Below, piece by piece: positions 26,101-43,232 of a stretch of DNA of 64,000 nucleotides. This DNA is from Escherichia coli (GTDB lineage Bacteria > Pseudomonadota > Gammaproteobacteria > Enterobacterales > Enterobacteriaceae), in the NCBI RefSeq assembly GCF_011045215.1, contig NZ_CP049201.1; one strand, given 5' to 3'. The notes under the pieces were generated by a model. It was not told where the DNA came from and searched no databases. It saw only the letters and a list, made by a program, of their open reading frames with translations. The translations under genes were made by a program, and so were the position numbers. Every line of letters begins with the position of its first letter. Position 1 is the first letter of the stretch.

Positions 26101-26501
26101 GCGGTGGTAATGGTGAAAGTCGCCTTTTTCTACGCAAAGACGGCGAGTGGCGTTTTCCGCCGCTTGCAGCCGAACAGGCTTTGCATTACCTCTCACAACT
26201 GATTGAGGGGTATCGTGAAGGGATGTCCGCGCCATTGCTGGTGTTACCTGAAAGTGGCGGCGCGTGGCTAAAAACCTGTTATGACGCGCAAAACGATGCC
26301 ATGCTGGATGACGATTCCACGTTGCAAAAAGCCCGTACGAAATTCCTTCAGGCTTACGAAGGCAACATGATGGTGCGTGGCGAAGGTGATGATATCTGGT
26401 ATCAACGGCTCTGGCGGCAATTAACACCAGAGACAATGGAGGCCATCGTTGAACAGTCGCAACGTTTCCTGTTACCGCTGTTTCGCTTTAATCAGTCATG
26501 A
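23133..26501 (+). CDS. recC: exodeoxyribonuclease V gamma subunit
   Basis: 1122-aa ORF, N-terminus MLRVYHSNRLDVL. Confidence 0.97.
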   Translation: MLRVYHSNRLDVLEALMEFIVERERLDDPFEPEMILVQSTGMAQWLQMTLSQKFGIAANIDFPLPASFIWDMFVRVLPEIPKESAFNKQSMSWKLMTLLPQLLNREDFTLLRHYLTDDSDKRKLFQLSSKAADLFDQYLVYRPDWLAQWETGHLVEGLGEAQAWQAPLWKALVEYTHELGQPRWHRANLYQRFIETLESATTCPPGLPSRVFICGISALPPVYLQALQALGKHIEIHLLFTNPCRYYWGDIKDPAYLAKLLTRQRRHSFEDRELPLFRDRENAGQLFNSDGEQDVGNPLLASWGKLGRDYIYLLSDLESSQELDAFVDVTPDNLLHNIQSDILELENRAVAGVNIEEFSRSDNKRPLDPLDSSITFHVCHSPQREVEVLHDRLLAMLEEDPTLTPRDIIVMVADIDSYSPFIQAVFGSAPADRYLPYAISDRRARQSHPVLEAFISLLSLPDSRFVSEDVLALLDVPVLAARFDITEEGLRYLRQWVNESGIRWGIDDDNVRELELPATGQHTWRFGLTRMLLGYAMESAQGEWQSVLPYDESSGLIAELVGHLASLLMQLNIWRRGLAQERPLEEWLPVCRDMLNAFFLPDAETEAAMTLIEQQWQAIIAEGLGAQYGDAVPLSLLRDELAQRLDQERISQRFLAGPVNICTLMPMRSIPFKVVCLLGMNDGVYPRQLAPLGFDLMSQKPKRGDRSRRDDDRYLFLEALISAQQKLYISYIGRSIQDNSERFPSVLVQELIDYIGQSHYLPGDEALNCDESEARVKAHLTCLHTRMPFDPQNYQPGERQSYAREWLPAASQAGKAHSEFVQPLPFTLPETVPLETLQRFWAHPVRAFFQMRLQVNFRTEDSEIPDTEPFILEGLSRYQINQQLLNALVEQDDAERLFRRFRAAGDLPYGAFGEIFWETQCQEMQQLADRVIACRQPGQSMEIDLACNGVQITGWLPQVQPDGLLRWRPSLLSVAQGMQLWLEHLVYCASGGNGESRLFLRKDGEWRFPPLAAEQALHYLSQLIEGYREGMSAPLLVLPESGGAWLKTCYDAQNDAMLDDDSTLQKARTKFLQAYEGNMMVRGEGDDIWYQRLWRQLTPETMEAIVEQSQRFLLPLFRFNQS

Positions 26502-26676
26502 GTGCTGTATAAAAATTGCGCAATCTATCCGCTTACTTTATGATGCGCACCAGTCACGGACTGATGGTTATATAAACATAGGCTGACTCGTGCAGCACAA
26601 GATTAAATTCTGGCAGATCATTTGCGTTAACCTGTTGAATCTGTCCAGAAAATAAAGTTGATTATGAGGTCCGTGA

Positions 26677-29565
26677 ATGCCCCGCAGCACCTGGTTCAAA
26701 GCATTATTGTTGTTTGTTGCCCTCTGGGCACCATTAAGTCAGGCAGAAACGGGATGGCAGCCGATTCAGGAAACCATCCGTAAAAGTGATAAAGATAACC
26801 GCCAGTATCAGGCTATACGTCTGGATAACGGTATGGTGGTCTTGCTGGTTTCTGATCCGCAGGCAGTTAAATCGCTATCGGCGCTGGTGGTGCCCGTTGG
26901 GTCGCTGGAAGATCCCGAGGCGTACCAGGGGCTGGCACATTACCTTGAACATATGAGTCTGATGGGGTCGAAAAAGTACCCGCAGGCTGACAGTCTGGCC
27001 GAATATCTCAAAATGCACGGCGGTAGTCACAATGCCAGCACTGCGCCGTATCGCACGGCTTTCTATCTGGAAGTTGAGAACGACGCCTTGCCCGGTGCGG
27101 TAGACCGCCTGGCCGATGCTATTGCAGAACCCTTGCTCGACAAGAAATACGCCGAACGTGAGCGTAATGCAGTGAACGCTGAATTAACCATGGCGCGTAC
27201 GCGTGACGGGATGCGCATGGCACAGGTCAGCGCAGAAACCATTAACCCGGCACACCCCGGTTCAAAGTTTTCTGGTGGTAACCTCGAAACTTTAAGCGAC
27301 AAACCTGGTAATCCGGTGCAGCAGGCGCTGAAAGATTTCCACGAGAAGTACTATTCCGCCAATTTGATGAAGGCGGTTATTTACAGTAATAAACCGCTGC
27401 CGGAGTTGGCAAAAATGGCGGCGGACACCTTTGGTCGCGTGCCGAACAAAGAGAGCAAAAAACCGGAAATCACCGTGCCGGTAGTCACCGACGCGCAAAA
27501 GGGCATTATCATTCATTACGTCCCAGCGCTGCCGCGTAAAGTTCTGCGCGTTGAGTTTCGCATCGATAACAACTCAGCGAAGTTCCGCAGTAAAACGGAT
27601 GAATTGATTACCTATCTGATTGGTAATCGCAGCCCAGGTACACTTTCTGACTGGCTGCAAAAGCAGGGATTAGTTGAGGGCATTAGCGCCAACTCCGATC
27701 CTATCGTCAACGGCAACAGCGGTGTATTAGCGATCTCTGCGTCTTTAACCGATAAAGGTCTGGCGAATCGCGATCAGGTTGTGGCGGCCATTTTTAGCTA
27801 CCTCAATCTGTTACGTGAAAAAGGGATCGATAAACAATACTTCGATGAACTGGCGAATGTGCTGGATATCGACTTCCGTTATCCGTCGATCACCCGTGAT
27901 ATGGATTACGTCGAATGGCTGGCAGATACCATGATTCGCGTTCCTGTTGAGCATACGCTGGATGCAGTCAATATTGCCGATCGGTACGATGCTAAAGCAG
28001 TAAAGGAACGTCTGGCGATGATGACGCCGCAGAATGCGCGTATCTGGTATATCAGCTCGAAAGAGCCGCACAATAAAACGGCTTATTTTGTCGATGCGCC
28101 GTATCAGGTCGATAAAATTAGCGCACAAACTTTCGCTAACTGGCAGCAAAAAGCTGCCAATATTGCGCTCTCCTTACCGGAGCTTAACCCCTATATTCCT
28201 GACGATTTCTCGCTGATTAAGTCAGAGAAGAAATATGACCATCCAGAGCTGATTGTTGATGAGTCGAATCTGCGCGTGGTGTATGCGCCAAGCCGTTATT
28301 TTGCCAGCGAGCCCAAAGCTGATGTCAGCCTGATTTTGCGTAATCCGAAAGCCATGGACAGCGCCCGCAATCAGGTGATGTTTGCGCTCAATGATTATCT
28401 CGCAGGGCTGGCGCTTGATCAGTTAAGCAACCAGGCGTCGGTTGGTGGCATAAGTTTTTCCACCAACGCTAACAACGGCCTTATGGTTAATGCCAATGGT
28501 TACACCCAGCGCCTGCCGCAGCTGTTCCAGGCATTGCTCGAGGGGTACTTTAGCTATACCGCTACGGAAGATCAGCTTGAGCAGGCGAAGTCCTGGTATA
28601 ACCAGATGATGGATTCCGCAGAAAAGGGCAAAGCGTTCGAGCAGGCGATTATGCCCGCGCAGATGCTCTCGCAAGTGCCGTACTTCTCGCGAGATGAACG
28701 GCGCAAAATTTTGCCCTCCATCACTTTGAAAGAGGTGCTGGCCTATCGCGACGGCTTAAAATCAGGGGCTCGACCAGAGTTTATGGTTATCGGCAACATG
28801 ACCGAGGCCCAGGCAACAACGCTGGCACGCGATGTGCAAAAACAGTTGGGCGCTGATGGTTCAGAGTGGTGTCGAAACAAAGATGTAGTGGTCGATAAAA
28901 AACAATCCGTCATCTTTGAAAAAGCCGGTAACAGCACCGACTCCGCACTGGCAGCGGTATTTGTACCGACTGGCTACGATGAATACACCAGCTCAGCCTA
29001 TAGCTCTCTGTTGGGGCAGATCGTACAGCCGTGGTTCTACAATCAGTTGCGTACCGAAGAACAGTTGGGCTATGCCGTGTTTGCGTTTCCAATGAGCGTG
29101 GGGCGTCAGTGGGGCATGGGCTTCCTTTTGCAAAGCAATGATAAACAGCCTTCATTCTTGTGGGAGCGTTACAAGGCGTTTTTCCCAACCGCAGAGGCAA
29201 AATTGCGGGCGATGAAGCCAGAAGAGTTTGCGCAAATCCAGCAGGCGGTAATTACCCAGATGCTGCAGGCACCGCAAACGCTCGGCGAAGAAGCATCGAA
29301 GTTAAGTAAAGATTTCGATCGCGGCAATATGCGCTTCGATTCGCGTGATAAAATCATGGCCCAGATAAAACTGCTGACGCCGCAAAAACTTGCTGATTTC
29401 TTCCATCAGGCGGTGGTCGAGCCGCAAGGCATGGCTATTCTGTCGCAGATTTCCGGCAGCCAGAACGGGAAAGCCGAATATGTGCATCCTGAAGGCTGGA
29501 AAGTGTGGGAGAACGTCAGCGCGTTGCAGCAAACAATGCCCCTGATGAGTGAAAAGAATGAGTGA
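26677..29565 (+). CDS. ptrA: periplasmic protease III (pitrilysin, M16 metallopeptidase)
   Basis: 962-aa ORF with signal peptide and HYLEH zinc motif. Confidence 0.96.
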   Translation: MPRSTWFKALLLFVALWAPLSQAETGWQPIQETIRKSDKDNRQYQAIRLDNGMVVLLVSDPQAVKSLSALVVPVGSLEDPEAYQGLAHYLEHMSLMGSKKYPQADSLAEYLKMHGGSHNASTAPYRTAFYLEVENDALPGAVDRLADAIAEPLLDKKYAERERNAVNAELTMARTRDGMRMAQVSAETINPAHPGSKFSGGNLETLSDKPGNPVQQALKDFHEKYYSANLMKAVIYSNKPLPELAKMAADTFGRVPNKESKKPEITVPVVTDAQKGIIIHYVPALPRKVLRVEFRIDNNSAKFRSKTDELITYLIGNRSPGTLSDWLQKQGLVEGISANSDPIVNGNSGVLAISASLTDKGLANRDQVVAAIFSYLNLLREKGIDKQYFDELANVLDIDFRYPSITRDMDYVEWLADTMIRVPVEHTLDAVNIADRYDAKAVKERLAMMTPQNARIWYISSKEPHNKTAYFVDAPYQVDKISAQTFANWQQKAANIALSLPELNPYIPDDFSLIKSEKKYDHPELIVDESNLRVVYAPSRYFASEPKADVSLILRNPKAMDSARNQVMFALNDYLAGLALDQLSNQASVGGISFSTNANNGLMVNANGYTQRLPQLFQALLEGYFSYTATEDQLEQAKSWYNQMMDSAEKGKAFEQAIMPAQMLSQVPYFSRDERRKILPSITLKEVLAYRDGLKSGARPEFMVIGNMTEAQATTLARDVQKQLGADGSEWCRNKDVVVDKKQSVIFEKAGNSTDSALAAVFVPTGYDEYTSSAYSSLLGQIVQPWFYNQLRTEEQLGYAVFAFPMSVGRQWGMGFLLQSNDKQPSFLWERYKAFFPTAEAKLRAMKPEEFAQIQQAVITQMLQAPQTLGEEASKLSKDFDRGNMRFDSRDKIMAQIKLLTPQKLADFFHQAVVEPQGMAILSQISGSQNGKAEYVHPEGWKVWENVSALQQTMPLMSEKNE

Positions 29566-32500
29566 TGTCGCCGAGACACTAGATCCTTTGCGCTTGCCCT
29601 TACAGGGCGAGCGCCTGATTGAAGCCTCTGCCGGCACAGGCAAAACCTTTACGATTGCGGCGCTCTATTTGCGCCTGTTACTTGGACTAGGCGGTTCCGC
29701 CGCCTTTCCCCGCCCGCTGACCGTTGAAGAACTGCTGGTGGTCACCTTTACCGAGGCTGCCACGGCAGAATTGCGCGGTCGTATCCGTAGCAATATCCAC
29801 GAGTTGCGCATCGCCTGTCTGCGTGAAACCACCGACAATCCACTGTACGAACGCCTGCTGGAAGAGATCGACGATAAAGCGCAAGCCGCGCAGTGGTTGT
29901 TGTTAGCCGAACGGCAGATGGATGAAGCGGCAGTCTTTACTATTCACGGCTTTTGCCAGCGCATGCTCAACCTGAATGCCTTTGAATCCGGCATGCTGTT
30001 TGAGCAGCAGCTGATTGAAGATGAGTCTCTGCTACGCTACCAGGCCTGCGCCGATTTCTGGCGTCGCCACTGCTACCCGCTGCCGCGTGAAATAGCCCAG
30101 GTCGTCTTTGAAACCTGGAAAGGGCCGCAGGCGTTGCTGCGCGATATTAATCGTTATCTGCAAGGCGAAGCGCCGGTTATCAAAGCACCGCCGCCCGATG
30201 ATGAAACGCTGGCTTCCCGTCACGCGCAAATTGTGGCGCGTATTGATACGGTAAAACAGCAGTGGCGCGACGCAGTGGGTGAACTGGATGCGCTGATCGA
30301 ATCTTCTGGTATTGATCGACGCAAGTTTAACCGTAGCAATCAGGCTAAATGGATCGACAAGATCAGCGCCTGGGCAGAAGAAGAGACAAACAGTTATCAG
30401 TTGCCGGAGTCGCTGGAAAAATTCTCCCAGCGTTTCTTAGAAGATCGCACGAAGGCCGGGGGGGAAACCCCGCGACATCCACTGTTTGAGGCGATCGATC
30501 AACTGCTTGCAGAACCATTGTCGATCCGCGATCTGGTGATCACCCGCGCATTGGCTGAGATCCGCGAAACAGTAGCGCGTGAGAAACGCCGCCGTGGCGA
30601 ATTGGGTTTTGATGACATGTTAAGTCGGCTCGATTCCGCGCTGCGTAGCGAAAGCGGTGAGGTGTTGGCAGCGGCGATCCGTACGCGATTCCCGGTGGCA
30701 ATGATCGATGAATTTCAGGATACCGACCCCCAGCAGTACCGAATTTTTCGCCGTATCTGGTACCATCAGCTGGAAACCGCATTGTTGCTAATTGGCGACC
30801 CGAAGCAGGCCATATATGCTTTCCGGGGTGCGGATATCTTCACTTATATGAAGGCGCGTAGCGAAGTTCACGCCCACTACACTTTAGACATCAACTGGCG
30901 TTCCGCACCAGGAATGGTGAACAGTGTGAACAAGCTTTTCAGCCAGACTGATGACGCGTTCATGTTTCGCGAAATACCGTTTATTCCAGTGAAATCAGCC
31001 GGGAAGAATCAGGCGTTACGTTTTGTATTTAAAGGTGAAACGCAGCCTGCGATGAAAATGTGGCTGATGGAAGGCGAAAGCTGCGGCGTTGGCGACTATC
31101 AAAGTACCATGGCGCAGGTATGTGCTGCGCAAATCCGCGACTGGCTACAAGCCGGACAGCGGGGCGAAGCGTTGCTGATGAACGGCGACGAAGCGCGTTC
31201 GGTGCGTGCTTCGGACATCAGCGTGCTGGTGCGCAGCCGCCAGGAGGCCGCTCAGGTGCGCGATGCCTTAACGCTGCTGGAAATCCCTTCCGTTTACCTT
31301 TCGAACCGCGACAGTGTTTTTGAAACTCTGGAAGCGCAGGAAATGCTTTGGTTGTTGCAGGCGGTGATGACGCCCGAACGTGAGAACACCCTGCGCAGTG
31401 CGCTGGCAACGTCAATGATGGGGCTGAATGCGCTGGATATTGAAACGCTGAACAATGACGAACATGCGTGGGATGCGGTAGTTGAAGAGTTCGATGGTTA
31501 TCGGCAAATCTGGCGCAAACGTGGCGTTATGCCGATGCTGCGGGCGCTGATGTCGGCGCGTAACATTGCAGAAAACTTGCTGGCAACGGCAGGCGGTGAG
31601 CGGCGTCTTACCGATATCTTGCATATCAGCGAACTGCTACAAGAAGCCGGAACGCAGCTGGAAAGTGAACATGCGCTGGTACGCTGGTTATCGCAACATA
31701 TCCTCGAGCCAGACAGTAATGCCTCCAGCCAACAAATGCGCCTCGAAAGTGATAAACATCTGGTGCAGATTGTCACGATCCATAAATCGAAAGGGCTGGA
31801 ATATCCGCTTGTCTGGTTGCCATTTATTACCAATTTCCGCGTCCAGGATCAGGCGTTTTATCACGATCGCCACTCGTTTGAGGCTGTTCTGGATCTTAAC
31901 GCTGCGCCAGAAAGTGTCGATCTCGCGGAGGCCGAACGTCTGGCGGAAGATCTGCGTTTGCTTTACGTGGCGCTGACGCGTTCGGTTTGGCATTGCAGTC
32001 TCGGCGTTGCACCGCTGGTGCGCCGTCGTGGCGATAAAAAAGGTGACACCGACGTCCACCAAAGTGCGCTCGGGCGTTTGCTGCAAAAAGGGGAACCGCA
32101 AGATGCGGCAGGGCTTCGCACCTGTATTGAAGCGTTATGCGATGATGATATTGCCTGGCAAACGGCACAAACTGGTGATAACCAGCCCTGGCAGGTTAAT
32201 GATGTTTTAACTGCAGAACTGAATGCGAGGACGCTACAACGATTGCCCGGCGATAACTGGCGTGTCACCAGCTACTCCGGTTTGCAGCAGCGTGGTCACG
32301 GTATCGCTCAGGATCTGATGCCACGGCTGGATGTTGATGCCGCAGGCGTGGTCAGCGTCGTTGAAGAACCGACGTTAACACCGCATCAATTCCCGCGCGG
32401 TGCGTCACCGGGGACATTCTTGCACAGTTTGTTTGAAGACCTCGATTTTACCCAGCCGGTTGACCCGAACTGGGTGCGGGAAAAACTGGAACTCGGCGGC

Positions 32501-33100
32501 TTTGAATCGCAGTGGGAACCGGTATTGACCGAGTGGATCACGGCTGTCCTCCAGGCACCTCTCAATGAAACCGGCGTAAGCCTGAGTCAACTTTCCGCCC
32601 GCAATAAACAGGTGGAGATGGAGTTTTATCTGCCGATTAGTGAACCGCTTATCGCCAGTCAGCTTGATACGTTAATCCGCCAGTTTGACCCGCTATCCGC
32701 AGGCTGCCCGCCGCTGGAGTTCATGCAGGTACGTGGCATGTTAAAAGGCTTTATCGACCTGGTGTTCCGCCACGAAGGGCGTTATTACCTGCTCGACTAT
32801 AAATCCAACTGGTTGGGTGAAGACAGTTCGGCTTACACCCAACAGGCTATGGCAGCGGCAATGCAGGTACACCGCTATGATCTGCAATATCAGCTTTATA
32901 CCCTGGCGCTGCATCGTTATCTGCGCCATCGCATTGCTGATTACGACTATGAGCGCCACTTTGGCGGCGTTATTTATCTGTTCCTGCGTGGCGTTGATAA
33001 AGAACATCCGCAACAGGGGATTTACACAACCCGACCCAACGCCGGGTTGATTGCCCTGATGGATGAGATGTTTGCCGGTATGACCCTGGAGGAGGCGTAA
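29558..33100 (+). CDS. recB: exodeoxyribonuclease V beta subunit (helicase-nuclease)
   Basis: ORF trimmed to [13 protein letters not shown] (1180 aa); Walker A AGTGKTFT; overlaps ptrA by 8 nt. Confidence 0.97.
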
Positions 33101-34926
33101 TGAAATTGCAAAAGCAATTACTGGAAGCTGTGGAGCACAAACAGCTACGCCCGCTGGATGTGCAATTTGCCCTGACCGTGGCGGGAGATGAACATCCTGC
33201 CGTCACCATCGCGGCGGCACTGTTAAGTCATGATGCCGGAGAGGGACACGTTTGTTTGCCGCTTTCACGACTGGAAAATAACGAGGCGTCGCATCCGCTG
33301 TTGGCGACCTGTGTCAGTGAAATCGGTGAGCTACAAAATTGGGAAGAATGCTTGTTGGCTTCTCAAGCGGTCAGCAGGGGAGATGAACCCACGCCGATGA
33401 TCCTCTGTGGCGATCGTCTTTATTTGAATCGCATGTGGTGTAACGAGCGGACGGTAGCGCGCTTCTTCAATGAGGTGAATCATGCCATCGAGGTTGATGA
33501 AGCTCTACTGGCGCAAACCCTGGACAAACTTTTTCCAGTAAGCGATGAAATTAACTGGCAAAAAGTTGCAGCGGCAGTGGCGCTGACGCGGCGGATCTCG
33601 GTGATTTCCGGCGGCCCAGGCACCGGTAAAACGACCACCGTGGCGAAGTTGCTGGCAGCGTTAATTCAAATGGCCGACGGCGAACGCTGCCGTATCCGTC
33701 TGGCTGCACCAACGGGTAAAGCTGCCGCGCGCTTAACCGAATCTCTCGGCAAGGCTTTGCGACAGTTACCGCTGACCAATGAACAAAAGAAACGCATTCC
33801 GGAAGATGCCAGCACTTTGCACCGATTGCTGGGCGCGCAGCCGGGTAGCCAGCGTTTACGTCATCATGCCGGTAACCCGCTGCATCTTGATGTGCTGGTG
33901 GTAGATGAAGCGTCAATGATCGATCTGCCTATGATGTCGAGACTGATCGACGCCTTGCCAGATCATGCGCGAGTGATCTTTCTCGGCGATCGTGATCAAC
34001 TGGCCTCGGTTGAGGCTGGGGCTGTGCTGGGCGATATCTGCGCTTATGCCAACGCGGGCTTTACCGCCGAGCGTGCCAGGCAGCTAAGCCGCCTGACGGG
34101 GACTCACGTTCCGGCTGGAACTGGCACAGAAGCGGCATCTTTGCGCGACAGTCTCTGCCTGCTGCAAAAAAGCTATCGTTTCGGCAGCGATTCTGGCATT
34201 GGTCAGTTAGCTGCGGCGATCAACCGTGGTGATAAAACGGCAGTGAAAACCGTTTTTCAGCAGGATTTTACTGATATCGAAAAACGGCTTTTACAGAGCG
34301 GCGAAGATTATATTGCGATGCTTGAGGAAGCTCTTGCGGGTTATGGACGTTATCTGGATCTGCTGCAAGCGCGTGCCGAGCCGGATTTAATCATTCAGGC
34401 GTTCAATGAGTACCAACTTTTGTGCGCCCTGCGGGAAGGGCCATTTGGCGTGGCTGGACTGAATGAGCGAATTGAGCAGTTTATGCAACAGAAGCGCAAA
34501 ATTCATCGTAATCCGCACTCTCGTTGGTACGAAGGCCGACCGGTGATGATTGCCCGTAATGACAGCGCGCTTGGGTTGTTTAATGGCGATATCGGTATTG
34601 CGCTGGATCGCGGGCAGGGGACGCGCGTCTGGTTTGCGATGCCGGACGGCAATATTAAGTCTGTGCAACCGAGTCGTTTGCCAGAGCACGAAACTACGTG
34701 GGCGATGACGGTACATAAATCGCAGGGATCGGAGTTCGACCATGCGGCGTTGATTTTGCTGAGCCAACGCACGCCGGTAGTAACGCGAGAGCTGGTTTAT
34801 ACCGCGGTGACCCGCGCGCGTCGCCGTCTGTCGCTGTATGCCGATGAGCGCATATTAAGTGCGGCAATCGCCACTCGTACTGAGCGGCGCAGTGGTCTGG
34901 CGGCGTTGTTTAGTTCACGGGAATAA
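33100..34926 (+). CDS. recD: exodeoxyribonuclease V alpha subunit
   Basis: 608-aa ORF, start overlaps recB stop (TAATG); Walker [11 protein letters not shown]. Confidence 0.97.
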
Positions 34927-34934
34927 ACGTAATT

Positions 34935-35056
34935 GCCGGATGCGACGCACGAGTGTTACGCCTGCCGCATCCGGCGATTTTCGTCGCTTACCCTAAATCC
35001 GCCATCAACATCTTCGATTTTACGTAGGTCGGATAAGGCGTCCACGCCGCATCCGA
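34935..35056. repeat. REP/BIME cluster between recD and argA
   Basis: Two REP-like palindromic units (GCCGGATGCGACGC...GCATCCGGC and GTAGGTCGGATAAGGCGTCCACGCCGCATCCGAC) and a roughly 50-bp direct repeat GATTTTCGTCGCTTACCCTAAATCCGCCAT. Confidence 0.7.
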
Positions 35057-35069
35057 CGATTTTCGTCGC

Positions 35070-36401
35070 TTACCCTAAATCCGCCATTAACACTTTGGAT
35101 TTACGCTGGTAGTTGTACAACTGCTTTTTGCTTTCGGGCAGTAAATCAATATCCACTGGGGTAAATCCACGTTCCTGGAACCAGTGAATACTGCGCGTGG
35201 TCAGCACAAACAATTTGCTTAAGCCGCTCTGCTTCGCCTGAGCGGCAATGCGTTCCAGCAGAACTTCACCCCTTGATGAACTGCGGTAATCCGGGTGAAC
35301 TGCCACACAGGCCATTTCCCCAATCTTCTCTTCCGGGAACGGATAGAGCGCGGCGCAGGCAATAGTCGTGTTATCGCGCTGAATAATGGTGAATTTGTCG
35401 ATTTCCATCTCCAGCTGCTCGCGAGAACGGCGTACCAGAATACCTTGCTGCTCCAGCGGGCGAATCAACTCCAGAATACCGCCAATATCGTTGATTGTTG
35501 CGCGACGAATCTGCTCGGCGCTTTCCATCACAATCTGCGTACCGATACCGTCGCGTGAGAACAACTCTTGCAACAGCGCGCCATCTTCCTGATAACTGAT
35601 TAAATGACAGCGACGCACGCCGCTGCGGCAGGCTTTCACTGCGCCACGCAAAAAGCGCACCGTACCGGAGTTGTAATCACCTTTCTCTTCCTGGGCTTCT
35701 ACCCGCGCTTGCGCTTCGTTAGGGAAAAGTTCGGAGACAATATCACCGTCGTCATTAGTGACGCCCTGGGAAGAGCAAAAACCAATCATCTTTTCAGCTT
35801 TCAGTTTGATGGCCAGTTGAGTGGCAATCTCTTCCGAGGTCAGATTAAAGCTCTCGCCAGTGACTGAAACAGCGACCGGCCCCATTAGCACTATTGCACC
35901 GCTGTCCAGTTGACGATGGATCGCGTCTTCATCAATCCGCCGGATACGCCCGCTATGGCAGTAATCCACGCCGTCATCGACGCCCAGCGGCTGGGCAATA
36001 ATAAAATTGCCACTGACGACGTTGATATGCGCGCCCTGCAGCGGCGTGTTATTGAGACTCATCGACAGGCGAGCCGTAATATCCAGTTGCAATGTTCCCG
36101 CAGCCTGCTTCACCAGTTCCAGTGTTTTGGCGTCGGTCACACGTATATTCTTGTGATACAGCGGTTCGTGGTGATGCGCAGCCAGATTTGCGTCGATCTG
36201 CGGACGTGCGCCATAGACCACCACCAGACGGATGCCGAGGCTGTGCAACAACCCGATATCATTAACGATACTGGAGAAATTCTCATGCTCAATGGCTTCA
36301 CCGCCGAGCATGATGACAAACGTTTTTCCCCGGTGGGTATTGATATAGGGAACCGAATGGCGGAATCCCTCGACCAGCTCGGTTTTACGTTCCTTTACCA
36401 C
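35070..36401 (-). CDS. argA: N-acetylglutamate synthase
   Basis: ORF trimmed to the GTG start giving [20 protein letters not shown] (443 aa). Confidence 0.93.
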
Positions 36402-37959: not shown

Positions 37960-38036
<77 letters not shown>

Positions 38037-39376: not shown

Positions 39377-39560
39377 CAGGGTGAGGGATAACCTCACATC
39401 CTGATTATTGACTAAGTGCGCGTTGTTCATGCCGGATGCGGCGTGAACGCCTTATCCAGCCTACAAATCATGCAAATCCAAAATATTGCAGGAGTTATGT
39501 AGGCCTGATAAGCGTAGCGCATCAGGCATTTATGCGTTTAGGGTGAGGGATAACCTCGCC
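39377..39560. repeat. BIME/RIP-like REP cluster between mltA and tcdA
   Basis: REP GCCGGATGCGGCGTGAACGCCTTATCCAGCCTAC and inverted REP GTAGGCCTGATAAGCGTAGCGCATCAGGC, flanked by two copies of GGGTGAGGGATAACCTC. Confidence 0.7.
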
Positions 39561-42524: not shown

Positions 42525-43232
42525 AAATATCCTCCGGCATAGCCGGAGGTTTTTCAAATGCGCCTATAAGGCTCTCTTACCAGCCGCGCCCTAACAGGCG
42601 CACACGATCTGACATTTGCATCCAACTTCGTTACTTACGGCCCGTAAACGGGCTGCCCGGATAGGGAATCGATAACTGCTCTCCCATTTCATCCTCTTCA
42701 AGCTGGTGCTTTATGTAATCCTGTATCTTCGCCGTGTTCTTACCCACCGTATCGACGTAGTACCCTCTGCACCAGAACTCCCTGTTCCTGTATTTGAATT
42801 TCAAATCCCCAAACTGCTCATAAAGCATCAGACTGCTTTTCCCTTTCAGATATCCCATAAAGCCGGATACGCTCATTTTGGGCGGGATCTCCACAAGCAT
42901 ATGGATATGATCTGCACAGCATTCAGCTTCAAGAATCCGTACGCTTTTCCACTCACACAGCTTTCTCAAAATACTGCCTATTGCTCTACGCTTCTCTCTG
43001 TAGAACACTTGTCTTCGGTATTTTGGCGCAAAAACTATGTGATATTTACAGTTCCATCGGGTGTGCGCTAAGCTCTTTTCGTTCCCCATTGGGACCCCCT
43101 TTTGATTTCTTGTTTGACACTTGCAGTTGCCAGACCGCAAGGTGTTTTAACAAATCAAAAGGGGTTTTAATAACTGGCTCAAAGCTGAAAGCTTTCCGGA
43201 ACCCCCAGCCTAGCTGGGGGTTTTCTGTGCAC
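42525..43232 (-). mobile_element. IS200 insertion sequence (IS200/IS605 family); ends approximate to within about 10 bp
   Basis: Encodes a 152-aa IS200-type Y1/HUH transposase; similar GC-rich subterminal hairpins at both ends (CCCCCAGC-CTA-GCTGGGGG at 43202-43220; CCTCCGGC-ATA-GCCGGAGG at 42531-42549); stem-loop sequestering the tnpA RBS; total about 708 bp. Confidence 0.85.
42631..43089 (-). CDS. tnpA: IS200 transposase TnpA (Y1 HUH transposase)
   Basis: MGNEKSLAHTRWNCKYHIVFAPKYRR...HIHMLVEIPP (HuH motif), 152 aa from the internal Met of the track ORF. Confidence 0.9.
   Translation of the reverse strand: MGNEKSLAHTRWNCKYHIVFAPKYRRQVFYREKRRAIGSILRKLCEWKSVRILEAECCADHIHMLVEIPPKMSVSGFMGYLKGKSSLMLYEQFGDLKFKYRNREFWCRGYYVDTVGKNTAKIQDYIKHQLEEDEMGEQLSIPYPGSPFTGRK

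Follow-up and report, generated by a model that had tools for sequence, protein, structure and literature searches.

Overlapping gene junctions in the ptrA-recB-recD unit of Escherichia coli and a predicted route for the supply of RecB and RecD

The RecBCD enzyme has to stay at a few molecules per cell, since both too little and too much of it impair double-strand break repair, and how this level is controlled is an active question (PMC12342828). The stretch of DNA analyzed here, 64,000 nucleotides (nt) of the Escherichia coli contig NZ_CP049201.1 (assembly GCF_011045215.1; hereafter the window), carries the genes of all three subunits, recC, recB and recD, with the protease gene ptrA standing between recC and recB. 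The starts of recB and recD lie inside the ends of the genes before them, and the locus raises the question of whether these overlapping junctions have a part in how much RecB and RecD is made. Our reading of the window, compared with that of related genomes, makes it probable that they do: the recB start tucked in behind the ptrA stop, together with a strong ribosome-binding site for recD, would act as a mechanism of RecBCD supply.

The recC / ptrA-recB-recD locus and its junctions

Between 19.5 and 35 kb the plus strand of the window carries lgt, thyA, ppdA, ppdB, ygdB, ppdC, recC, ptrA, recB and recD, followed by the convergent argA. The identities of the four genes in question are secure, with equivalog scores far above the curated cut-offs:

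23133-26501, plus strand: recC, RecBCD gamma subunit, 1122 amino acids (aa) (NCBIfam NF008289, 2128 bits, cut-off 1470; RefSeq)
26677-29565, plus strand: ptrA, pitrilysin (protease III), 962 aa (NCBIfam NF011681, 1852 bits, cut-off 765)
29558-33100, plus strand: recB, RecBCD beta subunit, 1180 aa (NCBIfam NF008128, 2328 bits, cut-off 1697)
33100-34926, plus strand: recD, RecBCD alpha subunit, 608 aa (NCBIfam NF008127, 1131 bits, cut-off 671)
29558-29565, plus strand: 8-nt ptrA/recB overlap ATGAGTGA, recB start and ptrA stop (sequence reading)
33098-33102, plus strand: 1-nt recB/recD overlap TAATG (sequence reading)

The ptrA product has the inverted zinc motif HXXEH in the form HYLEH at residue 88 and an N-terminus, MPRSTWFKALLLFVALWAPLSQA, that by eye resembles a signal peptide. 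RecB also matches the UvrD-type helicase models TIGR00609 and PF00580, and RecD carries the Walker A motif GGPGTGKT at residue 171. The region 26000-35500 was matched in 5,425 of 5,426 complete E. coli genomes at 95-99% identity, and all starts and stops are identical in the RefSeq annotation of the best match (99.2%). The locus is the canonical Escherichia recC / ptrA-recB-recD arrangement.

Direct reading confirms both overlaps of the original prediction. The recB ATG (29558-29560) lies inside the 3' end of ptrA, whose TGA occupies 29563-29565, and the recB TAA (33098-33100) shares one nt with the recD ATG (33100-33102). The left coordinate of that prediction, 29549, is an in-frame GTG directly 3' of two in-frame TGA codons (29543 and 29546), which the open reading frame (ORF) listing took as a start; it is not the true one. 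The ATG at 29558, which the prediction also named, is the start of recB, because RefSeq annotates it and because the 1180-aa product aligns from 1 to 1180 with the 1180-residue RecB chain of PDB 1W36_B. The further claim that ptrA is embedded co-directionally by tight junctions holds on its 3' side, at ptrA/recB and recB/recD, but not toward recC, from which ptrA is separated by a 175-nt spacer with a conserved promoter. recC therefore stands apart as an upstream unit of its own, beginning 12 nt past ppdC, while ptrA, recB and the final gene recD are packed without intergenic DNA.

Counting overlaps as negative and spacers as positive nt, the junctions along ppdA-ppdB-ygdB-ppdC-recC-ptrA-recB-recD are -10, -4, -16, +12, +175, -8 and -1, five of the seven being overlaps. 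Unidirectional gene pairs of E. coli most often have a -4 junction, with -1 and -8 next in frequency, and 24% of 2,987 such pairs fall between -8 and +6 (PMC10666635); overlaps are enriched between subunits of complexes (Huber et al. 2019, 2023). At -8 and -1, ptrA/recB and recB/recD both have the overlap or very short spacer that is expected of a coupled pair. As single instances they belong to the commonest junction classes and are no more than chance would give: the gene composition is odd, the junctions are not.

What exceeds chance is the persistence of the overlap. One genome per species was surveyed, giving 80 Enterobacteriaceae loci with RecB identities of 68-98%, and junctions were counted in 82 sequences (these 80, one E. 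coli genome and the window). The original prediction had called the gene order conserved but odd, and had proposed the conservation of the overlaps across species as a check. All 80 Enterobacteriaceae species, as well as Pantoea and Erwinia, have the order recC-ptrA-recB-recD, which Tatumella, Aeromonas and Vibrio lack; within the Enterobacteriaceae, ptrA and recB overlap in 81 of 82 sequences and recB and recD in all 81 that could be scored. The overlap is kept despite heavily diverged third-codon positions (mean third-position entropy 1.1-1.2 bits). Its form is less fixed: ptrA/recB is -4 in 45 sequences, -8 in 33, -20 in three and +413 in one, and recB/recD is -4 in 71 and -1 in 10. Point mutation suffices to shift it, as in three Kosakonia-group genomes where ptrA TGA became AGA and -8 became -20. 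Apart from a single large insertion, the ptrA/recB junction is never a positive spacer, and never a short one. recC and ptrA are always separated, by 110-186 nt, except in the Enterobacteriaceae metagenome-assembled genome UBA5654 (locus L029, 7100-7119), where the spacer is just 15 nt and the ptrA promoter region is missing, which implies either read-through from recC or an assembly artefact.

The large insertion is found in Intestinirhabdus alba, where 413 nt of GC-rich non-coding DNA (locus L018, 9588-10000) lie between the ptrA stop and the recB ATG. Its recB opens with ATGAATGA, a relic of the 8-nt overlap, in the sole non-overlapping ptrA/recB pair among the 82. More distant taxa were drawn from 50%-identity representatives, a direct search for RecB homologues having returned only relatives of at least 86% identity. 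In Pantoea agglomerans and Erwinia amylovora, ptrA/recB and recB/recD each overlap by 4 nt. In a Tatumella sp. (locus L082, 7955-8001) the ptsP-lgt-thyA-ppd...argA-amiC neighborhood is kept and ptrA is absent from the locus, with a recC-recB gap of 45 nt and recB/recD at -8; this looks most simply like secondary loss, because Pantoea and Erwinia keep ptrA. Aeromonas caviae, also lacking ptrA here, has recC/recB at -1 (TAATG) and recB/recD at +8. In one Vibrio parahaemolyticus genome (locus L088, 828-8000), likewise without ptrA at this place, some 11 small ORFs fill the ~7.2 kb between recC and recB, a single one of them with Pfam matches (mSLOG and DUF4326) and none matched by PADLOC, so that the recC/recB junction is interrupted there independently, by an island of unknown function. 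Six symbiont or unnamed loci (L083, L084, L086, L087, L089 and L090) are rearranged or reduced and uninformative on the ancestral order. In Serratia (Yersiniaceae), ptrA is reported to head an operon that includes recB/D. The Enterobacteriaceae and Erwiniaceae, at the least, thus share the arrangement, as does Serratia according to the literature; it is not universal.

Initiation signals and the proposed coupling of translation

The initiation signals of the four genes differ strongly. Shine-Dalgarno strength was calculated as the duplex energy of the 20 nt upstream of each start with the 3' end of 16S rRNA; random positions in the region average -2.6 kcal/mol, and 1.4% of them reach -8. recC and ptrA have ordinary sites (-6.6 and -6.3 kcal/mol in the window; means across loci -6.8 and -6.3). 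For recB the value in the window is -2.5 kcal/mol, i.e. no Shine-Dalgarno above background, and only across the 82 sequences does a weak one appear (mean -3.8). For recD it is -12.1 kcal/mol (mean over 81 loci -9.9), owing to the following site:

33088-33095, plus strand: recD Shine-Dalgarno GGAGGAGG, within the last recB codons and among the strongest possible

Its GGAG core precedes recD in nearly all loci despite varying C-terminal residues of RecB. An intragenic Shine-Dalgarno is usual, though not required, for coupled pairs; recD has one, while recB is equal to background. Synonymous constraint was assessed along ptrA and recB as amino-acid-normalized codon entropy in 77-80 distinct sequences, and recB codons 1-10 rank in the lowest 0.2% for synonymous variability, as expected of an initiation region. 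Folds of 100 nt were no more stable than shuffled sequences at ptrA/recB (z = -0.34), recB/recD (0.08) or the ptrA start (0.48), and an Rfam search matched no family within the ptrA-recB-recD operon.

Translational coupling of ptrA and recB, with the recB ribosome-binding site inside ptrA, has already been proposed (PMC12342828). In native E. coli pairs re-initiation requires an overlap or a spacer of at most a few nt and collapses within ~20 nt. We propose that recB is translated mainly by termination-reinitiation, because its AUG is without a Shine-Dalgarno and lies 8 nt upstream of the ptrA stop: ribosomes terminating on ptrA would step back 8 nt and start again. Such re-initiation would be inefficient, which would suit an enzyme present at <10 copies per cell (PMC12342828), and RecB output would be a small fixed fraction of ptrA translation. 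It would also be tied to events at the ptrA ribosome-binding site, near which Hfq binds (PMC12342828), and this would explain a published effect. Deletion of the 36-nt Hfq site before ptrA, 2.9 kb upstream of recB, raises the number of RecB proteins per mRNA from 7.9 to 16.3 (PMC12342828). Coupling of ptrA and recB would fit both this change in RecB translation upon a lesion in the ptrA 5' untranslated region (5'UTR) and the lack of a recB Shine-Dalgarno in the window. recD, by comparison, would be loaded efficiently, because the very strong GGAGGAGG stands before its AUG, which has one base in common with the recB stop; whether by re-initiation, direct initiation or both, the supply of RecD would stay near that of RecB and be matched to it.

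The gene order has a likely history that bears on this proposal. [quoted passage not shown] The ancestral string would then have been recC-recB-recD, with ptrA inserted secondarily and afterwards becoming the translated gene directly upstream of recB. Aeromonas offers a comparison of the ancestral type: its recB, directly behind recC with a 1-nt overlap, has a strong Shine-Dalgarno (-9.3). That of the Tatumella recB is moderate (-5.2).

Some points weigh against the proposed coupling. Fusions of recB and recD that lack the recB stop still give RecD of wild-type length, which the authors attributed to a minor internal promoter (PMC2586629), so that initiation of recD can proceed without termination at the end of recB. 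The Intestinirhabdus alba insert and the Tatumella gap mean that recB can do without a stop/start overlap at its start. Finally, the 82 sequences are phylogenetically related, so that fewer independent observations stand behind the count of 81 of 82 than it suggests.

The stop-less fusions also favor direct (de novo) binding of 30S subunits at GGAGGAGG as the way in which recD is initiated, the 1-nt overlap being incidental to placing this site in the C-terminal codons of recB. Such initiation is possible but falls short of being probable. It would agree with the exceptional strength of the site, with the lack of local RNA structure occluding it (the z of 0.08 given above) and with the finding of Huber et al. 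that one of five tested E. coli overlapping pairs is initiated de novo. In the same work, however, the other four of the five 4-nt-overlap pairs were coupled, and the contribution of the Shine-Dalgarno ranged from none to essential, strong motifs aiding re-initiation too; moreover, all 81 scored sequences keep the recB/recD overlap. Direct initiation and re-initiation at recD are not mutually exclusive.

Transcription of the unit and a constrained block inside ptrA

The co-transcription suggested by the original prediction agrees with the literature, which describes two operons at the locus, recC and a polycistronic ptrA-recB-recD (PMC12342828), and a joint response to sigma-E: upon its overproduction recC rises 4.5-fold, ptrA 10.7-fold, recB 4.5-fold (9.5-fold) and recD 3.1-fold (PMC2731931). 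The elements that bear on transcription in the window are:

26502-26676, plus strand: recC-ptrA spacer, 175 nt, with promoter and 5'UTR (sequence reading, alignment of 77 spacers)
26627-26662, plus strand: homologue of the Hfq-binding site in the ptrA 5'UTR, 36 nt (4 mismatches to K-12, aligned by eye)
28822-28838, plus strand: intragenic sigma-54 site CTGGCACGCGATGTGCA in ptrA (exact match to site IS33 of Bonocora et al. 2015, PMC4591121)
29326-29424, plus strand: strongest synonymous constraint of ptrA (codon entropy, 77 sequences)

The predicted ptrA promoter, of the sigma-70 type, consists of a -35 element TTGCGC (26516-26521) and a -10 element TATGAT (26539-26544) separated by 17 nt, with the start of transcription placed at ~26551. 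The two elements are the most conserved blocks of the spacer (at least 90% identity among 77 distinct Enterobacteriaceae spacers), and their position is consistent with the published distance of 76 nt from promoter to Hfq site (PMC12342828). A search for the K-12 Hfq site with up to 3 mismatches gave no match in the window. No sigma-E consensus (GGAACTT-N15-17-TCNAA, with 2 and with 1 mismatches) was found in or near the recC-ptrA spacer.

Independent promoters and terminators between the genes would speak against a common transcript. A consensus scan found none at the junctions and no enrichment of either kind, with 7 promoter-like sites against 14 expected and 23 terminator-like sites against 20.6 expected; it missed the ptrA promoter because the -35 element matches at just 3 of 6 positions. 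One terminator-like match (29659-29675) has a poor T tract and is within chance expectation. A conserved motif like an extended -10 element inside ptrA makes independent transcription of recB and recD possible.

This motif, TGATAAAAT (29346-29354, 204 nt upstream of the recB ATG), is the sole TGNTAWAAT on either strand of the window, where 4.06 would be expected. It belongs to a constrained block 135-250 nt upstream of the recB ATG, in which ptrA codons 884-893 (29326-29355) have z = -1.64, ~4 standard deviations below the mean and in the lowest 0.1% of 953 windows of codons; two adjoining windows, reaching 29424, are in the lowest 3.7% and 1.2%. The block contains CGTGATAAAAT, with the extended -10-like TGnTAAAAT. 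RNAalifold detected no conserved RNA structure in it (-3.25 kcal/mol, zero compensatory pairs). An antisense ORF over the junction (29302-29643, 113 aa) was considered and rejected, as it is open only in Escherichia and broken by 1-6 stops in 74 of the 82 sequences. Tentatively, the block may be an Enterobacteriaceae-wide internal promoter or regulatory DNA site giving a second recB-recD transcript, a candidate toward which its conservation points but which we consider rather unlikely. Were it real, RecB would have two routes, a coupled one from the polycistron under sigma-E and Hfq and an uncoupled one from an mRNA that lacks a Shine-Dalgarno and is poorly translated; a ptrA-independent route would be added, and co-transcription from the ptrA promoter would not be abolished.

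Within recB, too, synonymous variability is very low (lowest 0.1-1.2%) at 31790-31819 and 32723-32815. The latter pair of blocks lies ~285-375 nt upstream of recD and includes GACTATAAAT; its constraint could reflect the published minor internal recD promoter, or only an invariant nuclease motif encoded there.

That recB and recD are transcribed largely from a promoter of their own in the 3' end of ptrA, with a minor recD promoter in recB and thus as three nested units, appears doubtful; the ptrA/recB overlap would then tell little about RecB production. The block just described, as the most constrained of ptrA with the one TGNTAWAAT, would speak for it, and other data point the same way: a Tn5 insertion in Serratia ptrA left recB/recD mRNA unreduced, genomic SELEX (systematic evolution of ligands by exponential enrichment) placed a peak of a minor sigma factor inside recB, and the sigma-54 site lies inside ptrA in sense orientation, ~720 nt upstream of recB. 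The literature nevertheless treats ptrA-recB-recD as one operon with a joint sigma-E response. TGATAAAAT has no recognizable -35 element and is not kept in Pantoea and Erwinia, which keep the overlap, and the constraint could stem from something besides a promoter. The sigma-54 site was rejected as a conserved recB promoter, its -12 element being lost outside Escherichia; confined to this genus, it probably has no part in a conserved mechanism. The Serratia result may be due to read-through from the transposon. On a transcript of this kind recB would also have no Shine-Dalgarno and no translated ORF upstream.

The least satisfactory explanation, that the overlaps are neutral packing by drift of stops and starts with no role in expression, recB and recD being initiated de novo, could appeal to -4, -1 and -8 being the commonest classes genome-wide, to the five overlaps among the seven junctions of the gene string, to the free variation of the exact overlap among genera (in some Kosakonia one T-to-A change is enough to turn -8 into -20), to the missing overlap at the recB start of Intestinirhabdus alba and Tatumella and to the wild-type RecD of stop-less fusions (PMC2586629), yet it is improbable, given that recB lacks the usual signal for de novo initiation, that none of the 82 sequences has drifted to a short positive spacer, that re-initiation in native E. 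coli pairs is lost within a spacer of ~20 nt and that a change in the ptrA 5'UTR shifts the translation efficiency of RecB (PMC12342828).

Neighboring features and comparison with known systems

Downstream of recD, the window has several further features:

34927-35069, no strand assigned: recD-argA convergent spacer with REP-type (repetitive extragenic palindromic) palindromes, end of the unit (sequence comparison)

Compared with E. coli PS10-3 this spacer contains an 82-bp tandem duplication with a second REP-type palindrome, and the final ~36 nt of argA occur twice (34975-35010 and 35058-35095); a terminator-like match (34963-34976) coincides with a REP palindrome. Between amiC and mltA a single tRNA-Met (CAT) is found at 37960-38036, where PS10-3 has three tandem copies and PapM-32-1 one; as judged from these sequences, the difference is copy-number variation of a tandem array. 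Just 3' of mltA, 39464-39506 match the Rfam small RNA family ES036 (CssrF) with 46.5 bits against a gathering score of 37.6. Relative to PapM-32-1, ~705 bp are inserted between ygdI and gcvA (42528-43232). They contain a minus-strand ORF of 169 aa (42631-43140) with an HIHML motif typical of TnpA of the IS200/IS605 family (family assigned by eye), and the insertion appears to be an IS200-type element.

Earlier publications already contain the overlaps, the operon and the idea of coupling, so that in these respects our finding is a rediscovery. The survey adds the phylogenetic extent of the arrangement (Erwiniaceae yes, Tatumella no), counts for the conservation of the overlaps, the asymmetry between the recB and recD Shine-Dalgarno sequences and a candidate internal regulatory block in ptrA.

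The closest known system is the thyA-recC-ptrA-recB-recD-argA locus of E. coli K-12, with the same genes, order, strand and neighbors (ptsP-lgt-thyA-ppdAB-ygdB-ppdC upstream, argA-amiC downstream) at 95-99% nucleotide identity. The 1-nt recB/recD overlap (PMC2586629), the recB ribosome-binding site in ptrA and the Hfq and sigma-54 sites have been described there. The window differs from it only at strain level, by the 4 mismatches in the 36-nt Hfq site, and from PS10-3 by the REP-associated duplication 3' of recD. The coupled pairs of Huber et al. (hyfHI, astDB, menDH) are likewise co-directional, and the -1 and -8 of the window are common classes. Their category of subunits of one complex, which is enriched among overlaps, includes recB/recD; ptrA and recB, in contrast, are not partners in a complex, and recB is without the usual intragenic Shine-Dalgarno. 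Those pairs are known from experiment, whereas in the window coupling is predicted from sequence. In other experimentally shown coupled pairs (1982 work, as cited in PMC12342828) the start lies at or within the upstream stop, as here, and translation of the second gene depends on that of the first; as that work is cited, these pairs encode enzymes of one pathway, whereas ptrA, the upstream gene here, codes for an exported protease that has nothing to do with DNA repair. Finally, the uninterrupted recC-recB-recD of Aeromonas caviae, which corresponds to the 'usual order' of Cromie 2009 as cited, has the same co-directional and tightly joined subunit genes. In sharp contrast to the window, no protease gene stands between recC and recB there, and the recB start has a strong Shine-Dalgarno of its own (-9.3 against none).

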